A DNA stretch of 64,000 bases from an uncultured Heliomicrobium sp. (lineage in GTDB: Bacteria; Acidobacteriota; Blastocatellia; RBC074), in the NCBI GenBank assembly GCA_964570175.1, contig CAZMXG010000007.1:2109-66108 (forward strand), given 5' to 3'. A program made the translations under genes and the position numbers. Of this stretch, positions 9,928-64,000 are shown one piece after another. Every line of letters starts with the position of its first letter. Position 1 is the first letter of the stretch. A model generated the notes under the pieces. The model ran no database searches, was not told the origin of the DNA, and was given only the letters and a program-made list of their open reading frames with translations.

Positions 9928-10269
9928 ATGAAATCTCGTATTTTTGCTTCATCAGTATTATTTGCTGTGGCGCTTTTTTTGATGGCCTGCCCCAGTCAAA
10001 CCACAATCAATAAGCTAAATGGCGACCCGGAGCGGTATCGCGGCAAGGAAGTGATGATCGTTGGTACGGTCACGAACAGTTACGGTGCCGCAGGGTTCGG
10101 AGCTTACGAGCTAAGCGACGAAACTGGAAAGATATGGGTACTGACCAAACGCGGCACACCTAGTAAAGGCGCCAGAGTTGGCGCCGTTGGAAAATACATG
10201 CAGGGGGTAAACTGGGGCGGGCGTAATTTCGGCAGCTCCATTGAAGAGACTGACCGGAAAGTTCGATAA
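9928..10269 (+). CDS. Small lipoprotein (signal peptide with lipobox LMAC)
   Basis: MKSRIFASSVLFAVALFLMAC. Strong RBS GAGGAGG 6 bp upstream. 113 aa, Gly-rich beta protein. Confidence 0.4.
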   Translation: MKSRIFASSVLFAVALFLMACPSQTTINKLNGDPERYRGKEVMIVGTVTNSYGAAGFGAYELSDETGKIWVLTKRGTPSKGARVGAVGKYMQGVNWGGRNFGSSIEETDRKVR

Positions 10270-10291
10270 GCGGAAACAGTTTGAACAAAGT

Positions 10292-10340
10292 AAAAAGGGC
10301 GGCAAATGAAGATTAACCATCTCATTTGCCGCCCTTTTTA
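10292..10340. terminator. Bidirectional rho-independent terminator between convergent genes
   Basis: Perfect inverted repeat AAAAAGGGCGGCAAATGA / TCATTTGCCGCCCTTTTT flanked by A- and T-runs, between the + lipoprotein gene and the - 118-aa gene. Confidence 0.6.
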
Positions 10341-10347
10341 CTTTTGA

Positions 10348-10704
10348 TTAAGCCGCAGCGGCCACAGTCGCTTTTGGACGACCATGAATTTTAATAGTGT
10401 CGTAGTCTTCTGCTTCGACAGTAAATTCATAATTGCGGGCCGGTTGGTATTTGCCGATCATTTCGTTGAATTTCACAACCATCGGTTCGACAAAATCATG
10501 CATTAAAGCGCTTTCTTCAACGACTTTGTGCTGAACGTGGGCGACATCATCTTTGCTAATGCCCACATGATGCATCAAGCGGAGAGGCAAATCCTTTGCC
10601 TCTGAAATTCCGGTGTCAATGCAATAATCCTGGTTGCGAGCCTCTAGCTCCAAGAGCTGTTTATAGAATGTTTCATTGTTATTAAAAGCCAGGCTATTTT
10701 CCAT
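10348..10704 (-). CDS. Hypothetical protein (118 aa)
   Basis: ORF with a plausible RBS context. His-rich segment (LMHHVGISKDDVAHVQHKVV). No family recognised. Confidence 0.3.
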   Translation of the reverse strand: MENSLAFNNNETFYKQLLELEARNQDYCIDTGISEAKDLPLRLMHHVGISKDDVAHVQHKVVEESALMHDFVEPMVVKFNEMIGKYQPARNYEFTVEAEDYDTIKIHGRPKATVAAAA

Positions 10705-10912
10705 GATCTATCCTCCGTAAAACATTCAGCGCTGGTGCTGATGATTTTGATTTCGCTTTCCTTGGACAATCGTGCCAAAGAAAGCACGTTGAAGCATAAG
10801 CTTAGGTACGAAAGAACTGGAGAAAACACCGAATTAGTGCGCGGGGAAAATGAAATCTGACTTTTGCGTTGTTCGAGAAAAAAGGTAGTTCAGGCGGTTT
10901 GAAATGTCAATT

Positions 10913-11554
10913 TTATTGCACAGAACCTGGGCTGAGAGGCTTTTTTAACCTGCGTTCCGTGGTGGATGGATAATACTTGTTCAACACTCGATACCCCAAT
11001 AAGACAACCAGCGCCGTGCCAAAAGCCAAAGGCAAACTAACATCAACTTTGACCAGTTGATAATAATGCCAAACACCAGCAATCGCGGCGGGGAATACCA
11101 GTTTATGAAGCCGATTCCATTTTCGCCCTCCCAACCGCTTGACCATCTTGCTGGTTGAAGTCACCGCCAACGGAACCATCAGCACAAAGGCCAACATCCC
11201 TAAAAAGATAAAAGGCCGTTTCAGCGTGTCTTCGGCAATTGCGCGAAAGGCAAATCCTTTATCGAACCAAGTGTACGCCAGCAAATGCAGGCAGCCGTAA
11301 AAGAATGCGTACAGCCCCATCATCTTTCGAAACTGCACCATCCACGGCAATCCCAGAATCTTTCGCAAAGGCGTTACAGCCAACGTCAGCAAGAGAAAAA
11401 CCAGCGTCAGCGTGCCCGTCGTATGCAGTACAAATTCTTGCGGATTGGTTCCCAGCCGATGGTGAAAGGCGTCCCAAGCCAGCAAAGCAACCGGCACTGC
11501 TGCATTTACGAAGACTGCGGTTTTGGCGAATTTGATGTCTGGCATAATCTTCAA
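10913..11554 (-). CDS. msrQ: Protein-methionine-sulfoxide reductase heme-binding subunit MsrQ (YedZ, ferric-reductase-like TM domain)
   Basis: Six TM helices with conserved His. Overlaps msrP upstream by 4 bp. This is the typical msrPQ arrangement. Confidence 0.75.
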
Positions 11555-26981: not shown

Positions 26982-27020
26982 AAAAAGAAAAGGCGGCATT
27001 GAATGCCGCCTTTTCTTTTT
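26982..27020. terminator. Bidirectional rho-independent terminator
   Basis: AAAAGAAAAGGCGGCATTGAATGCCGCCTTTTCTTTT is a perfect hairpin flanked by A/T runs, between convergent ddl and the FecR-like gene. Confidence 0.6.
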
Positions 27021-27036
27021 GATTTCCGGTTCAAAC

Positions 27037-29118
27037 CTAGTTGCTGGGTTTGATCGGGCGTGGTGGTGGCGCTTCGCGCGAAGGTGGCGAAGATGGTTTG
27101 TCCGGCGCACGTTCGCTTCTGGATGGAGCCGATTCACGCGACGGCGGCGGCGACGAAGGCCGTTCCGGCGCGCGTTCGCTTCTGGACGGAGCCGATTCTC
27201 GCGAAGGCGGCGGCGATGAAGGCCGTTCAACCGGACGCGATGGTGGCGGATCGTACCGTCGCGGAGCTTCACTGCGCGAAGGCGGTTCGCTTTGCCGAGG
27301 CGTTTCGATGCGTGACGGACGATCCGCATCGCGGTTCACTTCGCGGTTTGGTGTCGAACGCGGCGTATCAACAGAATCGCGTGACGGATTGCTGCGCTCG
27401 CTTTCCGGCAAACTGCGCGTAGGAGCCGGAATACGGTCAACAGTTCTGTATTCGCTTTCACGCGGTTGACGGTCAGGGCGAACGATCTGCCCATCCTGAA
27501 TCCGGCTTGGCGATGCAGAATTACCGTCTGCGTTGCGAATCGGAGCGCTTCGATCCGGCGACACAGTCCCCCGACCATCACGAGATGGAAGCCCGCCGAC
27601 TTCTGCTCTGCCCGGAACACCCGTGCGATCCAATCCCGGCACCGGGCGGCGTTCAATCACAGGAGCTTCCAGCCGACGAGCAATTTCAGTTCGTTCGACT
27701 TTCAGTTCGCGCGTCGGCGCAGCCTGCACAGGTTTGAACTCTTCGCCGCGCAACATAGTCGGCGTAGAGGGATCTGCTGGCTGACCACCTCCGCGAGGCG
27801 GAGCAGGCGGCAAAATAATTTCATTTGGCGCTTTGATGTCATTTTGCGTGACGATCACTCGCCCGTTATCGAACTTGCGGCCATCCATGACGCTGACTCC
27901 GCCTGGAGCATTGTAATTATCCAGCGAACGCGCATTGATGATGGTCGTGTTGTTGACGATTGTGGTGGAACCTCGGCCGCCGTAATACCTGTCGCGCGGG
28001 CCCAATGGACACCAGCCGTACCAACCATATCGCCCGTCGCGATACCCGTCACGATAGCCCTGGTTGTAACCGCTGCCCCAGCCAAAAAACGCGACTTGAT
28101 GCGGTGCCCAGCCCCAGCCCACTGAAACGGTCGGCACCCAGCACCAACGGCTGCGATACCAGGCCCAGCGCCCGTAATGATAGGGAACCCATCCCCAAGG
28201 TTCGTACGAAACCCAGGTCCAGCCCCAGCCGGAATAGTGCCGCCAGTAACCGGCTCGGTAAGGTGCCCAGCCAACGGCTACGCTACGAGGCGACCAGACC
28301 CAACCGTAATCAGGGGATTCATACCATTCACCGTAAGCGTCCAGATCATAAACGCCAGGAACGGCCACAGGAATGTAACGCGCACTGCGGGAATTTTCGG
28401 CCCGCGAAGACAGATCATCATCGCGGCGGTCATTCCAACGATCCCAATCGTCTTTGTCATCCAGCCGTGCAATCTGGAAGTAATTGGCATCTCGCCCATC
28501 AACAACAATACGGCGGCCTTGTTTAACCGTCACTGCGCCAATATCACGGTTGTAAACTTCAGCCTGTCCGCGCCGGACGATCACTTCGGTGGTTCCGTCA
28601 TCCTGCACATTGATGCGGTAGCTGCCTTCTTTCAAAAACGTGACGGCGACAATCGGCGTATCGACTTCAAAATAGACCGGATCGTTTTTTCCCAGATCGT
28701 TCGCGTCAACAACACTGAATTGACGCCGATCCAAGCTGTCTACGCGAAACGTCGCATTTCCGACTGGCAAGGCAAATTGAATTGTTCCGTTGTTGAATTG
28801 TGAAAACCGCAGATTGGAATTGCGGTCAATGCGGATCAGATTGCGTCCGCTAATTTGAATTTCAGCTCGACCGCCTGGGCCGCTATAAATCTGGTCACGT
28901 TCATTTAGTGGCAGATTCAAAGAAGCGTCATACCAGTTTTGGCCATCGCCGGTGCGCTGATAACTGACTTCACCTTCAATCAAGCTGATGCGGGCAACAC
29001 GTACAGCCTGGTCTTGCGCGACAACCAGCGTGAACAGGGAGGTCAGGAAACCGATCAAAAGTGCCGCACGCATCAGGCGGCGGCTTGCAAGCAATTCTGA
29101 AGCAGTGGGAAAGAGCAT
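27037..29118 (-). CDS. Secreted FecR-domain-like protein with Trp/Tyr/Gly-rich central region and Pro/Ser-rich repetitive C-terminal tail
   Basis: Signal or anchor helix. N-terminal [13 protein letters not shown]...[19 protein letters not shown] is FecR-like. Central segment dense in W/Y/G ([50 protein letters not shown]). About 250-aa low-complexity P/S/R/E tail ending in two 21-aa repeats. Confidence 0.5.
27100..27230. repeat. Coding tandem repeat, 63-bp unit x2, encoding [18 protein letters not shown](E/D)(R/K)P
   Basis: Near-identical 63-nt units begin at about 27102 and 27165 on the + strand, inside the 3' end of the 27037..29118 gene. Confidence 0.7.
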
Positions 29119-57940: not shown

Positions 57941-59626
57941 ATGAAAACGGCTGCATTGCTGTTTTGCTTTTTGCTGCTGACACCCAATATCGCTATGCCA
58001 AAAACTCAAGACAACTTGCCAAAATCTCGCGCTGAACTGACCAACTACGAAGAAACCAGCCGCTACGAAGACGTCATGCGATTTATCGCCGATCTTCAAA
58101 AAATGACCGACAAGATACGCGTTGAATCCTTCGGTAAAACCGAAGAAGGCCGCGAACTGCCGCTGATGATTTTTGCCAATCCGCCGATTTCTCAACCACG
58201 CGAAGCGCGCGCCAGTGGCAAACCTGTCGTTTTCATTCAAGCAAACATTCACGCCGGGGAAGTGGAAGGGAAGGAAGCGATGCTGCATTTGTCGCGGCGC
58301 ATTGTTGCCGGCGATCTGAAACCCTTGTTGGACAAACTGGTGATTCTGGTTGCGCCAATTTACAACGCAGACGGCAACGAAAAAATCAGCGTCAATAACC
58401 GCACAGCTCAGAACGGGCCCATCGGCGGAGTCGGCACGCGCGAAAACGCCAAAGCCATGGATTTGAACCGAGATTACATGAAGCTGGAATCGCCTGAAGC
58501 CAACGCGCTGGTTGGTTTGATGAATCGCTGGGACCCGCATCTGACCGTTGATCTGCACACAACAAACGGCTCCTATCACGGTTATCATCTGACGTACGCA
58601 CCAACGCTGAATCCCAATGCTGATGCTAGGCTGATTGCCTTCGGTCGAAACAAAATGCTTCCGGCTATCACGCGCACGCTGCTGGTGAAGCACAAATTCC
58701 GCACTTACTTTTACGGCAACTTCGCAACCAAAGAGCGCATAAACCGCGAAGTGAATACTTTCGAGATGCAGCGCGAAGGCCGTGCGGCTCAACCCGCTGA
58801 CAAACCCGAAACCAAAATCTGGCGCACGTTCGATCACAAACCAATGTTCGGCAATAACTATGTTGGGTTGCGCAACCGGCTGACGATTCTTTCCGAAGCC
58901 TACAGCTATCTGGATTTCAAAGGCCGCATCGCCGTTACCGAAGCCTTTGTCGAAGAAATTTTCAAATACTCTGCGCTGCACGCCGCCGAAATCACTTCAC
59001 TGATCAACCGAGTGGATGCCGATGCTTTTCGCGGCAAGCTCCCGGCAAAAGGCGTAGCCTTTGAAATCAAACCACTGGACAAACCCGTCAGTATCCTGGT
59101 CGGCGAAGTGAAGAAGGTCAAAAATCCAAAGAACGGCAAAGATATGACCGTGATGATCGAAGACAAATTCACGCCGACGCCAATGCCGGATTATGGAGTG
59201 TTCGCTGCTACGAAAAGCAACGAAGTTCCACGAGCCTATATTTTCAAAAACGAAACCGGCTTGAAAACTATAATCGCAAAGCTGCAAGCGCACGGCATTG
59301 CCATTGAAGAGTTGACCGAGTCGCTCGACACCGAAGGTGAAAGCTTCGTCATTGATTCGGTCAACAAAGCTGCTCGCGCCTTCCAAGGCCACGCCGAAGT
59401 TAAACTCAAAGGCCACACTCAAAAAGAAACTGTCAATTTCCCTGCCGGTTCAATTCTGGTTCGCACAACCCAGCCACTAGCATCGCTGATTTTTTACCTG
59501 CTGGAAGCTGAAAGCGACGATGGATTTGTGCGTTGGAATTTTCTGGATTCGTATTTGGAAAAAGGGAAGCCCTATCCGATTTACAAACTAACAGGCGAGA
59601 TAAAAGCAGCAAGCAAATTACGCTGA
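57941..59626 (+). CDS. Secreted M14-family zinc carboxypeptidase
   Basis: Signal peptide. [10 protein letters not shown] (HxxE zinc site). Downstream His/Glu positions and overall 560-aa architecture. Confidence 0.7.
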
Positions 59627-59809: not shown

Positions 59810-60409
59810 CTATCTGACTGGTTCACCGAGAACGTAGCCATTAACCATCACGGTAGGCTCTTTGCCAAGCTGAATAATGCATGTGTTGGAGAAACCTTCC
59901 TTGTTTTCATTCTTTGGCGTCCAAGTAATTTCCAGAGCCTCTACCGCCTTGCCAACTGCAACCGTAGTCGTCGTTTGCCCGATGCGAATCTTGTCCGAAC
60001 CCGTGCCGAGCTTATCCCCCGCCTTCTGATCAATCATTACTGCATTGCCTGCCACCTTGGATTCCGTCTCTCCAGAAGGCAGCCGATTCAACGTCACCGG
60101 CTTTATCGTAACCGTGTACTGCTTCATCTCCGCGGCAATCAGCACCTCAACCTGCGCTGTCGAATCATCTAGCCGCTGCGCGACGATGGCTACGGCATAA
60201 TGCGGCGTCAATGCTCCCAGCGCGTAATTCCGCAACGTCTCATCGCGCCATTTGGTGTAGGCAACTAATGGCGTTGTAGATATTGGCGTTATCTGTGTGC
60301 CGTTGCTCTGCTCCGCCAGAGCACCTGGGGTTGCGGCTGGTTCTTGCACTTGCGCTGATGCAGCGATAGTCGCCAATACAAACAAACTACTCAATATTAT
60401 GTTAACCAT
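59810..60409 (-). CDS. Secreted hypothetical protein
   Basis: Start set at MVNIILSSLFVLATIAASAQ (signal peptide). Beta-rich. AT-richer than the window average. Confidence 0.3.
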   Translation of the reverse strand: MVNIILSSLFVLATIAASAQVQEPAATPGALAEQSNGTQITPISTTPLVAYTKWRDETLRNYALGALTPHYAVAIVAQRLDDSTAQVEVLIAAEMKQYTVTIKPVTLNRLPSGETESKVAGNAVMIDQKAGDKLGTGSDKIRIGQTTTTVAVGKAVEALEITWTPKNENKEGFSNTCIIQLGKEPTVMVNGYVLGEPVR

Positions 60410-60476
60410 TGTTGTGTTACCTCGTGATAATATGGCTATCCTTGCTATAGGGAATTGGCTTGATTTATAGCAGTTT

Positions 60477-60806
60477 TTAGCAGTCGACAGGTTTGAGTTG
60501 AGTAAAAAAACCGTCTTTCCATAAGTAATCAACAGATGCTTTTATGTTTTCCATTGTTACTTTAGGGATAACTATAAGACCTGGCTCCGCAAAACAAGGG
60601 ATACCGCGCTTACTGTCATAGCTTAAGTCTTGCTCTAGCCTTGTAGGATCAATAAAGAAGATAGAGTATTGATTTCCATCCTCCAATCTCACTTTAATAG
60701 GCCCAACCCATCCTTTCACAACCATTTCGTCTTGTGCTCTTTTATCGAATCCTTTAGGAAACTCAAATTCTGGGTATTGCGTTATTTTTTGTAATGGCAT
60801 ATTCAC
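60477..60806 (-). CDS. Putative immunity protein for the upstream RHS toxin tip
   Basis: 109-aa ORF starting 9 bp after the RHS stop on the same strand. AT-rich like the toxin tip. No recognised domain. Confidence 0.4.
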   Translation of the reverse strand: MNMPLQKITQYPEFEFPKGFDKRAQDEMVVKGWVGPIKVRLEDGNQYSIFFIDPTRLEQDLSYDSKRGIPCFAEPGLIVIPKVTMENIKASVDYLWKDGFFTQLKPVDC

Positions 60807-60815
60807 CTTGCTTTA

Positions 60816-63800
60816 TCAAAATGGAATCAGCTTAATCAAGCTCAATAGGTCTATAAATCTTTCTAAAGTCATAGGAGATTGAGGGCCAATTTCATAATGG
60901 CCCGGAGAACCTTTCGGAAAAATCTCTAACTCAGGAGAAACTGTATTGAGGTCAATTTTATATGGCCCCCCATATTTAATAATATTTGGGTCATTTGGAT
61001 TCTGATTAACTGACATTCCTTTTCCTGGTTGAACCATCCCATTTTTAACTTTTATATCAATGCCAGGACGAGGACTATTTAGCTCCGGCCCACCTCGATA
61101 TAACGGAGGGCCATTATATTTACATTGATTATGCACCAGCACACTCAGTGTTGATACATAGTAAGTATGTGCTTCTGCCACCTCGAAGTTGTAGACTTTG
61201 AACTCACCACTTCGTCGCTTTATCGAGTCAACTTTGGCGACTGTTGTGTTCTTTGTCAGTAATTGTGAGCCCTGCTCCAATTGCCCAGCAGCGACCCATC
61301 CTTTTCCTATCACCCAAAATGGATGTTCTGGCGTTGCAGTAATGGTTTCTTTGCCAATGCGAATGTCTACAACTTCTGTAGCTGTTCGCTCAAAGACCTG
61401 CACCACCTTTTGTACACGGACAACAGATCCATTTTCTCCTTGTTCAGGATCAGAGGACAAGACTTTATCTCCGACTTTGATGTCTTCGATGCTTTTCTCG
61501 CCATCTGGTGTCTGCACTTTTGTGCCGGCGACAAAACAGTAATTGGCAGGATATCTACTACCAAACCTGCCGCCCAGAAATCCTCCTAACAATCCTCCTA
61601 GCAACCCAGCTCGTTCTATCTCGCACATTTGGTTCCAGCGTCTCAATGCTCTTGCCAACTGCACCACACCAACTACTGCTAGCGTTACGCCGATAACTGG
61701 AATTGCGACGGGAAACAGAGGCGCAAGTTCAATCATCATTAACGACATTCCGCCTGCAACATAAGCGCTTTCCGCCGCGCTTCTCCCAAATTCTCCCCAT
61801 TCCTCTCTTCCCCAACCCTGCAATCCTATGGGGTCAAACAGGTTCGTTGGGCTGTTGTAAACATAGGAGTACAGATTGGTATCTCGGCCAGCCAATCCAA
61901 TCGGGTCTTCGCTTAGGAATCGCCCTTGCTGAGGATCGTACCAGCGCGCACGATAATGCATCAGCCCAGTAGCAACATCTCGCTCTCGCCCTGTGAAGCC
62001 ATAACGTGTTCTTACACTTCCAGCGCTTGCGCCAAAAGCATCATATTGCTGTAGGGATTCAACCAGGCCCCCAGCAGCATTCGTCAATCCGAGCGTGCTT
62101 CCCAGGTGATCTTGCAAGAAGTACATCGTTCCCCAGGTTGAATCACTCTGCCTTAACTTGTCGTCAATGCTGGCCCCGTTCAGGTAATCAACTGCGCTCC
62201 CGTTAGAGCGGTCAATTACTGTTTCCAATCCATCGTACTGATAAGTCGTTGTCGTTCCATTGACCGAACTGCTAATGCGTCTTCCGGTTGCGTCATATCC
62301 ATAATCGGCGGTTTGTCCGTTGGGTAATGTTGCGCGAGTCAGTCTGCCACGAGCATCCCATTGATAGCCGGTTGTGCCTGAAGCATCTATTTTGGATGTC
62401 GTTTGCCCTTCCTGATTGAAGCTGTAATTAGCTGCTCCGAATTGCCCAATTCGATTGGCGGCATCTGCCGAGGTTGCTGTCTTGCTCTGAGGAGTTGCCA
62501 GCGCAGAAGCCAATGACGTGACTTTGTTGATTTCATTGTCCAAGTTGAATTCATACTGCAAGTCTTCCAACGTTGTGCTAGCGTTTGTATGAGTCAATCG
62601 CTTCAATCGGCTGACTTCATCATATAGGAATGCAGTGGTGACGTTATTCGGTCTTTGCAAGCTGGTTCGTCGGGAAAGCGTGTCGTAACCGTAGGTGAAG
62701 GTTTCACTTCCTTGCGAGATCGTCTGTAATCTTCCAAATGTGTCATAGCCATACGCCACGGGCAGTCGGTCTGCTGCCGTCATGGAATTCCGCTGATTGG
62801 CGTTGTTATAGCTGTAACTGACGACTCCAAGTGGGGTTGTTTCTGATGTTAGCCGGTTCGCGTTGTCGTATTGCCAGGTAATCGCACCATTCGCATCGCC
62901 GATGCTTGTGGGGCGGCCTGCCGTGTCATATTGATAAGTTACGGTGGCATCAGCATAAGTGACCGTGACAGGGCGATTGATATTGTCATAACTGACCGTT
63001 GTTCGCCGCCCCATGCGATCAGTCCTGGCAATGACGTTGCCCACAGGGTCATATTCCGCTGTCACCTTTCGCCCCAAGGGATCACTTCGGCTTGTCAGCC
63101 TGAATAACTCATCGTAGCCAAACGTCAAAGTGTTGTTGCGCTGATCTTTCAGCGAAATCACGTTTCCTCGATGGTCATAGATAAGGTTGATGATATTGCC
63201 CAACCCATCAGTGATCGTCTGCTGTTGGCCGCGAGCATCATAGCTATACCGCATTGTTCGCCCCGAAGCCGCAATCACTTTTACTAATTGATCTGCGGCA
63301 TCGTATTCCCACTTATAGGGTTTATCGTTGGATTCATTCAGTGGGCGTTTGCCAGTTACTAGATGATTCTTCGCATCATAAGTGAAAGTCCAGGTCTTCA
63401 GATTCGCATCGGTTACGCTCAGCCGGTTGTCGTTCTCATCATAGGTATAGCTGTAAGTTGGATTTCCTGTCTCATTAACCGGATCATTAACGGGCTTCCT
63501 TACATTCAAGACTCTATCCAGATTGTCATAACGCATTCTAGTCTGTCGTCCGAGCGGATCGGTTACCAACAAGAGATTACCAGCTAGGTCGTACTGAAAT
63601 GTTGTTGAATGATTGAGCGCATCGGTATGCGAAATGATGTAGCCATTCACATCGTATCCATACGATGTCGCATGGTTGAGCCCATCAGTAATGGCGGCCA
63701 GTCGCCCCAAGCTATCATAAGCATAAGCCGTCGTCTGGTTCAGCGCATTGGTGACGCTGACTAGGTTGCCTTTGGGCGTGATAGTGTTTGACGATACCGT

Positions 63801-64000
63801 GTCGTAACCGTAGCTGGTTACTTTGTTGCGCTTGTCGGTGTAACTGGTGACCTGACTGAGCACCGGATCGTAGCTGCTGGCCGGGCTGAAGGAGCGGTAC
63901 TGCCAGCTTTCGGTTTGACCCAACCGGTCTTTCACCGTCAGGACGTTGCCGCGATTGTCGTAAGTCTTTTCGGTTTCCGGACAACCGCAAGGCCCCGTAC
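60816..64000 (-). CDS. RHS / YD-repeat polymorphic toxin (partial; N-terminus beyond window end) with Hint domain and C-terminal toxin tip
   Basis: Dozens of YD repeats (YDxxGRL, TYQYDxxGN...). RHS core terminal motif DPIGLAGRDTNLYSYVYNSPTNLFDPIGL. Hydrophobic linker. Hint module CFVAGTKVQTPDG...VLVHNQ. About 105-aa tip. The listed start at 63935 is a GTG and the reading frame stays open to 63990 (KTYDNRGNVLTV...), so the gene continues upstream of the window. Confidence 0.85.
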   Translation of the reverse strand, partial: TGPCGCPETEKTYDNRGNVLTVKDRLGQTESWQYRSFSPASSYDPVLSQVTSYTDKRNKVTSYGYDTVSSNTITPKGNLVSVTNALNQTTAYAYDSLGRLAAITDGLNHATSYGYDVNGYIISHTDALNHSTTFQYDLAGNLLLVTDPLGRQTRMRYDNLDRVLNVRKPVNDPVNETGNPTYSYTYDENDNRLSVTDANLKTWTFTYDAKNHLVTGKRPLNESNDKPYKWEYDAADQLVKVIAASGRTMRYSYDARGQQQTITDGLGNIINLIYDHRGNVISLKDQRNNTLTFGYDELFRLTSRSDPLGRKVTAEYDPVGNVIARTDRMGRRTTVSYDNINRPVTVTYADATVTYQYDTAGRPTSIGDANGAITWQYDNANRLTSETTPLGVVSYSYNNANQRNSMTAADRLPVAYGYDTFGRLQTISQGSETFTYGYDTLSRRTSLQRPNNVTTAFLYDEVSRLKRLTHTNASTTLEDLQYEFNLDNEINKVTSLASALATPQSKTATSADAANRIGQFGAANYSFNQEGQTTSKIDASGTTGYQWDARGRLTRATLPNGQTADYGYDATGRRISSSVNGTTTTYQYDGLETVIDRSNGSAVDYLNGASIDDKLRQSDSTWGTMYFLQDHLGSTLGLTNAAGGLVESLQQYDAFGASAGSVRTRYGFTGRERDVATGLMHYRARWYDPQQGRFLSEDPIGLAGRDTNLYSYVYNSPTNLFDPIGLQGWGREEWGEFGRSAAESAYVAGGMSLMMIELAPLFPVAIPVIGVTLAVVGVVQLARALRRWNQMCEIERAGLLGGLLGGFLGGRFGSRYPANYCFVAGTKVQTPDGEKSIEDIKVGDKVLSSDPEQGENGSVVRVQKVVQVFERTATEVVDIRIGKETITATPEHPFWVIGKGWVAAGQLEQGSQLLTKNTTVAKVDSIKRRSGEFKVYNFEVAEAHTYYVSTLSVLVHNQCKYNGPPLYRGGPELNSPRPGIDIKVKNGMVQPGKGMSVNQNPNDPNIIKYGGPYKIDLNTVSPELEIFPKGSPGHYEIGPQSPMTLERFIDLLSLIKLIPF

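Follow-up and report, generated by a model that had tools for sequence, protein, structure and literature searches.

The 64,000-nucleotide stretch of contig CAZMXG010000007.1 analyzed here (called the window below) ends in part of an RHS polymorphic-toxin locus that lies on its minus strand and in which an RHS/YD-repeat shell, terminated by a DPIGL motif, is followed by a linker, a predicted self-cleaving pretoxin HINT domain, a small C-terminal toxin tip and a small gene that putatively encodes the cognate immunity protein. The tip and the immunity gene lie in an AT-rich compositional island. We consider it likely that this island is the variable end of the locus, in which a resident shell, linker and HINT domain carry an exchangeable cassette made up of a Tse2-like toxin and its immunity gene. 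Because base composition and sequence conservation both break at the HN/QC junction (the slash marks the end of the HINT domain, at 61128/61127), we take that junction to be the point at which toxin–immunity cassettes are exchanged between carriers.

The mean guanine-plus-cytosine (GC) content of the window is 51.5%, with a standard deviation of 3.0 percentage points across all 891-bp windows. An earlier reading made from the sequence only (the sequence-only reading) had picked out the patch at 60410-61300 by eye as AT-rich, and measurement bears this out: its GC content is 39.7%, and only 0.23% of equal-length windows in the 64 kb are as low. The two AT-rich strings that it quoted occur once each in the window, at 60460-60488 and 60842-60870. 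The lowest-GC 891-bp window of the whole 64 kb is 60375-61265 (38.2%), the runner-up among non-overlapping stretches is 10234-11124 (43.7%), and a two-state maximum-likelihood fit gives a low-GC segment at 60375-61060 with 36% GC against 50% around it. An assembly artefact is ruled out, as the identical sequence was found in two independent run assemblies. The island is thus real and is the strongest in the window, with a GC z of about -4.5.

Codon usage, which together with sliding-window GC had been proposed as the check, gives the same answer. The GC content at third codon positions (GC3) is 0.275 in the tip and 0.336 in the immunity gene, whereas the background, a set of 54 open reading frames (ORFs), has a GC3 of 0.554 ± 0.047 with a minimum of 0.442. 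Taken together, the tip and immunity codons have a GC3 z of -5.2, and 0 of 5000 length-matched bootstrap samples are as low, so the island is clearly distinct from both the flanking genes and the background. The shell upstream was correctly described as not AT-rich (GC 0.504; its GC3 of 0.535 is like the background). The wider statement that the rest of the window is not AT-rich holds in that the island is the lowest point of the 64 kb, and it needs the amendment that the HINT domain is mildly AT-shifted, with a GC content of 0.459 and a GC3 (0.413) intermediate between those of its neighbors.

Where does the island end? Its lower edge lies at about 60375-60410, in agreement with the boundary of ~60410 drawn by eye, and the island includes the spacer of 73 bp and reaches ~10 codons into the gene that follows. 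The upper edge lies at about 61060-61180; the GC3 breakpoint within the RHS ORF is at about 61178, and the nucleotide identity to the closest known relative (below) breaks at 61105-61125. This edge is the end of the HINT domain, the HN/QC junction. The sequence-only reading had put the upper boundary at ~61300 and had it coincide with the start of the Hint/tip module, and neither placement survives, since 61300 falls in the middle of the HINT domain, which starts at 61538.

The closest known relative of the locus is on a 6.1-kb metagenome contig, L003, that carries the same arrangement of shell, linker, HINT domain, tip, immunity gene and downstream gene. Nucleotide identity between the window and L003 is 76-83% through the shell and HINT domain and 51-63% from about 61105; the low identity spans the first two-thirds of the immunity gene and then recovers to 74%. 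At the protein level the identities are 0.82 for the shell, 0.79 for the linker, 0.79 for the HINT domain, 0.40 for the tip and 0.57 for the immunity protein. The nonsynonymous divergence (dN) jumps from 0.11 to 0.54 precisely where the tip joins the HINT domain, and the proportion of synonymous differences (pS) is 0.96 in the first 70 immunity codons as compared to 0.53-0.65 in the shell. L003 also has a gene that is not present in the window, an extra SUFU-family gene (5159-5716 of L003; PF05076, 72 bits; GC 0.42) placed after the immunity gene and before the conserved downstream gene, which looks like an orphan immunity gene in the same variable slot.

The toxin–immunity pair is also found apart from this HINT domain. 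A metagenome scan with a 3-sequence alignment gave 6 loci, and the same pair rides on at least two further RHS carriers, unrelated and without a HINT domain (L004/L005/L076 and L077), whose pre-toxin linkers are unrelated to that of the window. The tip of the window scores 81 bits against the tips of these carriers and 61 bits (rank 33) against the L003 tip. In a variant of the L004 locus (L006/L075, the same contig, 1-1121) the carrier ORF ends early (...GGFCSK, then stop) and the toxin is reduced to an 86-amino acid (aa) ORF that begins MQARPNIDV, while the immunity gene is intact; this is a decaying or orphaned cassette. Conversely, the nearest shells in genomes, those of metagenome-assembled genomes of Acidobacteria, Blastocatellia and Pyrinomonadaceae (61-64% aa identity; L008-L010), cease to be similar right after DPxG and carry unrelated tips. 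The distribution is therefore patchy: one module turns up in several contexts, and one context holds several modules. Because the nearest shells break at DPxG and L003 breaks at HN/QC, there are two nested exchange points, DPxGL and HN/QC, and it is the inner one that separates the window from L003. Four independent lines (composition, the L003 break, the other carriers and the nearest shells) thus support the earlier suggestion of a horizontally exchanged tip/immunity cassette on a native RHS shell, but the L003 break and GC3 move the graft point from the start of the HINT domain to its end.

The tip is best modeled as a compact Tse2-like domain with the ADP-ribosyltransferase-superfamily fold. 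It scores 25.2 bits against the Pfam family ADPRTs_Tse2 (PF18648), just under the cut-off of 26.6; the three close tips are all weak matches to this profile, and four of ten relatives sampled (P0009, P0011, P0015 and P0019; 27.7-30.8 bits) pass the cut-off. A 35-sequence profile of the tip family matches Tse2 (PDB 5AKO) with E = 0.009, and the AlphaFold2 model of the tip, made with 33 sequences, has a mean confidence score (pLDDT) of 96.1. R11 (in YRGG), G13, G37 and H77 (in HYE) are invariant in the family and S39 nearly so, and the tip is basic (isoelectric point, pI, 8.75). A word-index protein search with the tip gave no matches and a PADLOC scan found none. HMMER, run exhaustively against 1.84 billion representatives, did detect relatives: 270 of them have E ≤ 1e-3, the top one being 52% identical to the tip. 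In each of the best 150 of these 270 the domain is C-terminal, in proteins of 65 to 2062 aa, and in many relatives it is directly preceded by "...VHN". The carriers among the ten relatives sampled for Pfam domains are RHS, PT-HINT, PT-TG and DUF6861 proteins, and short ORFs are also among the carriers of Tse2-like tip relatives.

The putative immunity ORF opens 15 nt after the toxin stop codon (a GTG at 60806 was set aside as its start in favor of the recorded ATG) and encodes an acidic protein (pI 5.1) that has no Pfam, NCBIfam or PADLOC match and no significant fold match in the PDB. Among 5.8 billion sequences its homologues form only three clusters, and every homologue found sits directly after a toxin of the window's sub-family, on three carrier types; this position and co-variation are what point to an immunity function. 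In a divergent toxin branch (L078/L079, with GHWEI for GHYEI) an unrelated ORF of ~102 aa (MENKINKVAV...) lies downstream of the toxin instead, an indication that the immunity family changes with the toxin sub-branch.

From what is known of these protein families, the parts would work together as follows: the shell would encapsulate the C-terminal region and cut it at DPIGL, the HINT domain would cut after its terminal Asn (VLVHN/QC) to free the toxin, and the toxin would act in the cytoplasm of a neighboring cell as Tse2 does, arresting growth, probably by NAD-dependent ADP-ribosylation or a related transfer. In the producer cell the immunity protein would bind the toxin and block it. Exchange of the cassette presumably takes place by homologous recombination in the conserved HINT domain or in the flank. 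At third codon positions the cassette has remained AT-rich and unlike the host, which could mean either that transfer of cassettes between genomes outpaces their amelioration or that toxin codons are held AT-rich.

A drop in GC after a HINT domain is not peculiar to the window. Among 44 other PT-HINT loci, which come from many phyla, 36 have a tip with less GC than the 1.5 kb upstream (mean difference -5.2 points, Wilcoxon p = 2e-6), the 400 bp after the tip are GC-poorer in 40 (-6.3 points), and the HINT domain itself is slightly GC-poorer than the upstream DNA in 32 (-1.7 points). At -12.6 points, the drop of the window tip belongs with the largest of these. In the six loci that have the toxin family of the window the toxin GC3 is 0.14-0.24 below that of the carrier. 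It is conceivable, though unlikely, that this consistent third-position AT-shift of toxin codons, seen across hosts of 40-70% GC, reflects selection (silencing, or slow translation against self-intoxication) and not a history of transfer.

How else might the island be explained? It is very improbable that its low GC is a mere by-product of a small protein pair rich in Lys, Asn, Ile, Phe and Tyr. The GC contents at first and second codon positions are indeed somewhat under background (0.49/0.38 in the tip and 0.50/0.33 in the immunity gene, against 0.58/0.43), but because the largest deficit falls at third positions the low GC is mainly synonymous, and with none of the length-matched samples as low we reject amino acid composition as the sole cause. 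It is also improbable, though less so, that the exchanged unit is everything after DPIGL (linker, HINT domain, tip and immunity gene) and that its HINT part has merely ameliorated further. The HINT GC3 lies under that of all 54 background ORFs, the HINT domain is the slightly GC-poorer part in most of the comparison loci, and L008-L010 diverge exactly after DPxG; however, the linker has a host-like GC3 (0.567), linker and HINT domain are as conserved as the shell in the comparison with L003, where the break is at HN/QC, and the toxin–immunity pair exists without a HINT domain on other carriers. Exchange after DPIGL is best seen as an older, outer layer that is compatible with the exchange of the smaller cassette.

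It is unlikely that there was no transfer at all, so that the tip and immunity gene are ancestral and diverged in place through an arms race (hence the high dN), with an AT-richness due to selection or to relaxed codon selection (low or slow translation, binding of silencing proteins). This would accommodate the finding that toxin GC3 is under carrier GC3 in 6 of 6 family loci whatever the GC of the host, and the GC-poorer tips of most of the 44 PT-HINT loci could likewise be explained as a property of toxin genes. It does not readily account for the presence of the same pair on unrelated carriers without HINT domains, for a window tip that is closer to foreign tips than to the tip of the orthologous L003 locus, for slot contents that vary between relatives (the SUFU gene of L003), for the unrelated tips on the nearest shells, or for a pS in the first 70 immunity codons that exceeds that of the shell. 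Exchange of the cassette nevertheless has its own difficulties. At the island we found no mobility gene, tRNA, flanking direct repeat or orphan tip, an absence of mobility signatures that in-place divergence would also predict; no paralogue and no orphan tip or immunity copy is present elsewhere in the window; and no donor lineage was found, the best tip match anywhere being the one at 52% identity. Synonymous sites are nearly saturated throughout the comparison with L003 (dS, the synonymous divergence, is 0.9-1.6 in the shell), and therefore dS cannot separate replacement from fast evolution in situ, and dating the cassette by dS failed. Finally, the immunity proteins of the window and L003 are mutual closest relatives (61%), with the last third of their genes 74% identical in DNA, and therefore part of the cassette may be ancestral and fast-evolving; selection on toxin codons, with an AT-shift that is consistent across hosts, could add to the low GC3.

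Table 1. Features of the RHS locus at the end of the window, in the order of transcription.
Feature	Position	Strand	GC3	Remarks
RHS/YD-repeat shell, partial	61821..64000	-	0.535	ORF open to window end
Linker	61539..61820	-	0.567	94 residues, follows canonical RHS cleavage motif
Pretoxin HINT (predicted)	61128..61538	-	0.413	Cys1 (CFVAGT, 61538) to C-terminal VLVHN (ends 61128)
Toxin tip	60819..61127	-	0.275	103 aa, QCKYNGPPLYRGG...HYEIGP..PM...; stop codon 60816-60818
Putative cognate immunity gene	60480..60800	-	0.336	107 aa; ATG 60800; stop codon 60477-60479
Spacer	60404..60476	-		73 bp, AT-rich, between immunity gene and next gene; low-GC segment ends at 60375
Downstream gene	59813..60403	-	0.569	197 aa, signal-peptide-like N-terminus; GC 0.525

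The features of the locus are collected in Table 1. The RHS reading frame is open to base 63998, and the N-terminus of the protein lies beyond base 64000, outside the window; in the full-length RHS protein of L003 no recognised N-terminal domain was found. The shell matches Pfam RHS_repeat with 249.7 bits in 16 stretches, the TIGR01643 YD repeat with 205 bits in 10 stretches and TIGR03696 (Rhs_assc_core) with 79.7 bits at aa 652-726. There are two DPIGL motifs (61907-61893 and 61835-61821), and the Rhs-associated core ends at the second. With its multiple YD/RHS repeats and a core that ends in DPxGL, the protein has the sequence hallmarks of an RHS/YD polymorphic toxin. The linker contains a hydrophobic stretch of ~40 residues (1-2 predicted membrane helices; 19-residue Kyte-Doolittle means reach 2.2) and a Gly-rich GLLGGLLGGFLGG segment. 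Hydrophobic or Gly-rich segments also open the RHS tips of L007, L009 and L010 (related Acidobacteria/Pyrinomonadaceae RHS loci) after DPxG, and such a segment may be a conserved membrane-entry module. The HINT domain matches Pfam PT-HINT (PF07591) with 82.9 bits (cut-off 27.7) and TIGR01445 (intein_Nterm) with 28.8 bits; profile, Cys at position 1 and C-terminal His-Asn together identify it by sequence as a PT-HINT domain, and by analogy with that family it is predicted to release the tip by autoproteolysis.

No meaningful promoter, terminator, repeat or Rfam match was found in or around the island. The sequence-only reading had included a leader in it, which corresponds to the AT-rich spacer at the lower end of the island; neither a terminator-like nor a minus-strand promoter-like site was found in the spacer. 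A 20-nt inverted pair (60462-60481 and 60840-60859, 75% complementary) brackets the immunity gene and overlaps both of the quoted AT-rich strings, and we judge it to be probably a chance occurrence in AT-rich DNA. The downstream gene has no family match in Pfam, NCBIfam or PADLOC. Orthologues come after the cassette in L003 (55% aa identity) and in L001, and the gene is a conserved resident flank, which forms the border of the variable slot and lies outside the cassette. Convergent with the RHS operon, on the plus strand at 57941-59626, is a gene for a signal-peptide-bearing M14 zinc carboxypeptidase (PF00246, 71 bits) that has no apparent link to the toxin locus.

Two other compositional features of the window may be recorded here. 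The highest-GC kilobase is 27001-28000 (0.60), inside a minus-strand ORF at 27037-29118. In addition, RHS codons 1-90 visible in the window (63728-63998, minus strand) have a GC3 of 0.744, against 0.49 in the remaining shell, and this is a second break in composition, one that lies within the shell.

The locus resembles known systems closely. Classical Rhs elements are described in PMC11083783, on the basis of earlier work cited there, as having a GC-rich core, an AT-rich core extension and an AT-rich downstream ORF (dsORF), and displacement of Rhs tips by recombination is established (PMC2935791). Like the Rhs elements of E. coli and other Enterobacteriaceae, the window locus has a conserved YD-repeat shell that ends in ...DPxGL, a variable AT-rich C-terminal tip and, downstream of it, a small gene with matching composition, and in both cases tips are swapped between conserved cores. 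It differs from them in that the break comes ~230 codons past DPxGL, with a hydrophobic linker and a PT-HINT domain in between, that the shell is not GC-rich relative to the genome, that there are no dissociated (orphan) tips downstream in the window, and that the host is probably a member of the Acidobacteriota. From other PT-HINT toxins (PF07591) nothing essential differs: in them, too, the toxin directly follows a HINT domain that has Cys1 and a C-terminal HN, the toxin domain starts right after "...VHN" in many members, and varied toxins lie behind homologous HINT domains in 44+ loci of many phyla.

The Tse2/Tsi2 pair of Pseudomonas aeruginosa (PDB 5AKO; PF18648) shares with the window cassette the motifs G-x-S and HY-x-I-x-P-x-x-PM and the general plan, which the window locus would follow, of a small antibacterial toxin that acts in the cytoplasm and is encoded beside its immunity gene. 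Tse2 is a free-standing, Hcp-dependent substrate of the type VI secretion system, while the window tip, a minimal domain of 103 aa, is joined to RHS and HINT parts. The window immunity protein is unrelated in sequence to Tsi2 and is not a Tsi2-type partner. According to reviews, Tse2 is an NAD-dependent toxin like the ADP-ribosyltransferases; it makes cells quiescent, and Tsi2 neutralises it (PMC6099711, PMC10281587). Overall, the window has a typical RHS polymorphic-toxin locus with the classical AT-rich signature of tip and immunity gene, and it is no new type of system.

The result mainly clarifies the annotation of the locus. The resident gene and the exchangeable toxin–immunity module divide at HN/QC, not at DPIGL and not in the middle of the HINT domain, the tip is assigned to a Tse2-like fold, and an unannotated immunity family is flagged. 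It also adds a quantified case in which exchange at the DNA level and the change in composition both fall at the C-terminus of a HINT domain. The GC drop after PT-HINT domains is a common signature and could be used to delimit toxin cassettes automatically. We think it unlikely that the cassette stands for something more, namely a compact (~95-aa) minimal Tse2-like clade with its own undescribed immunity family, one that has few known members and no relative in Pfam, NCBIfam, PADLOC or the PDB. To our knowledge, the cellular target of Tse2 is not firmly established, and if that idea were true, this small, widespread and very confidently modeled Tse2-like domain (with an invariant R...G-x-S...H) could be a tractable system for finding the target of the Tse2 family.

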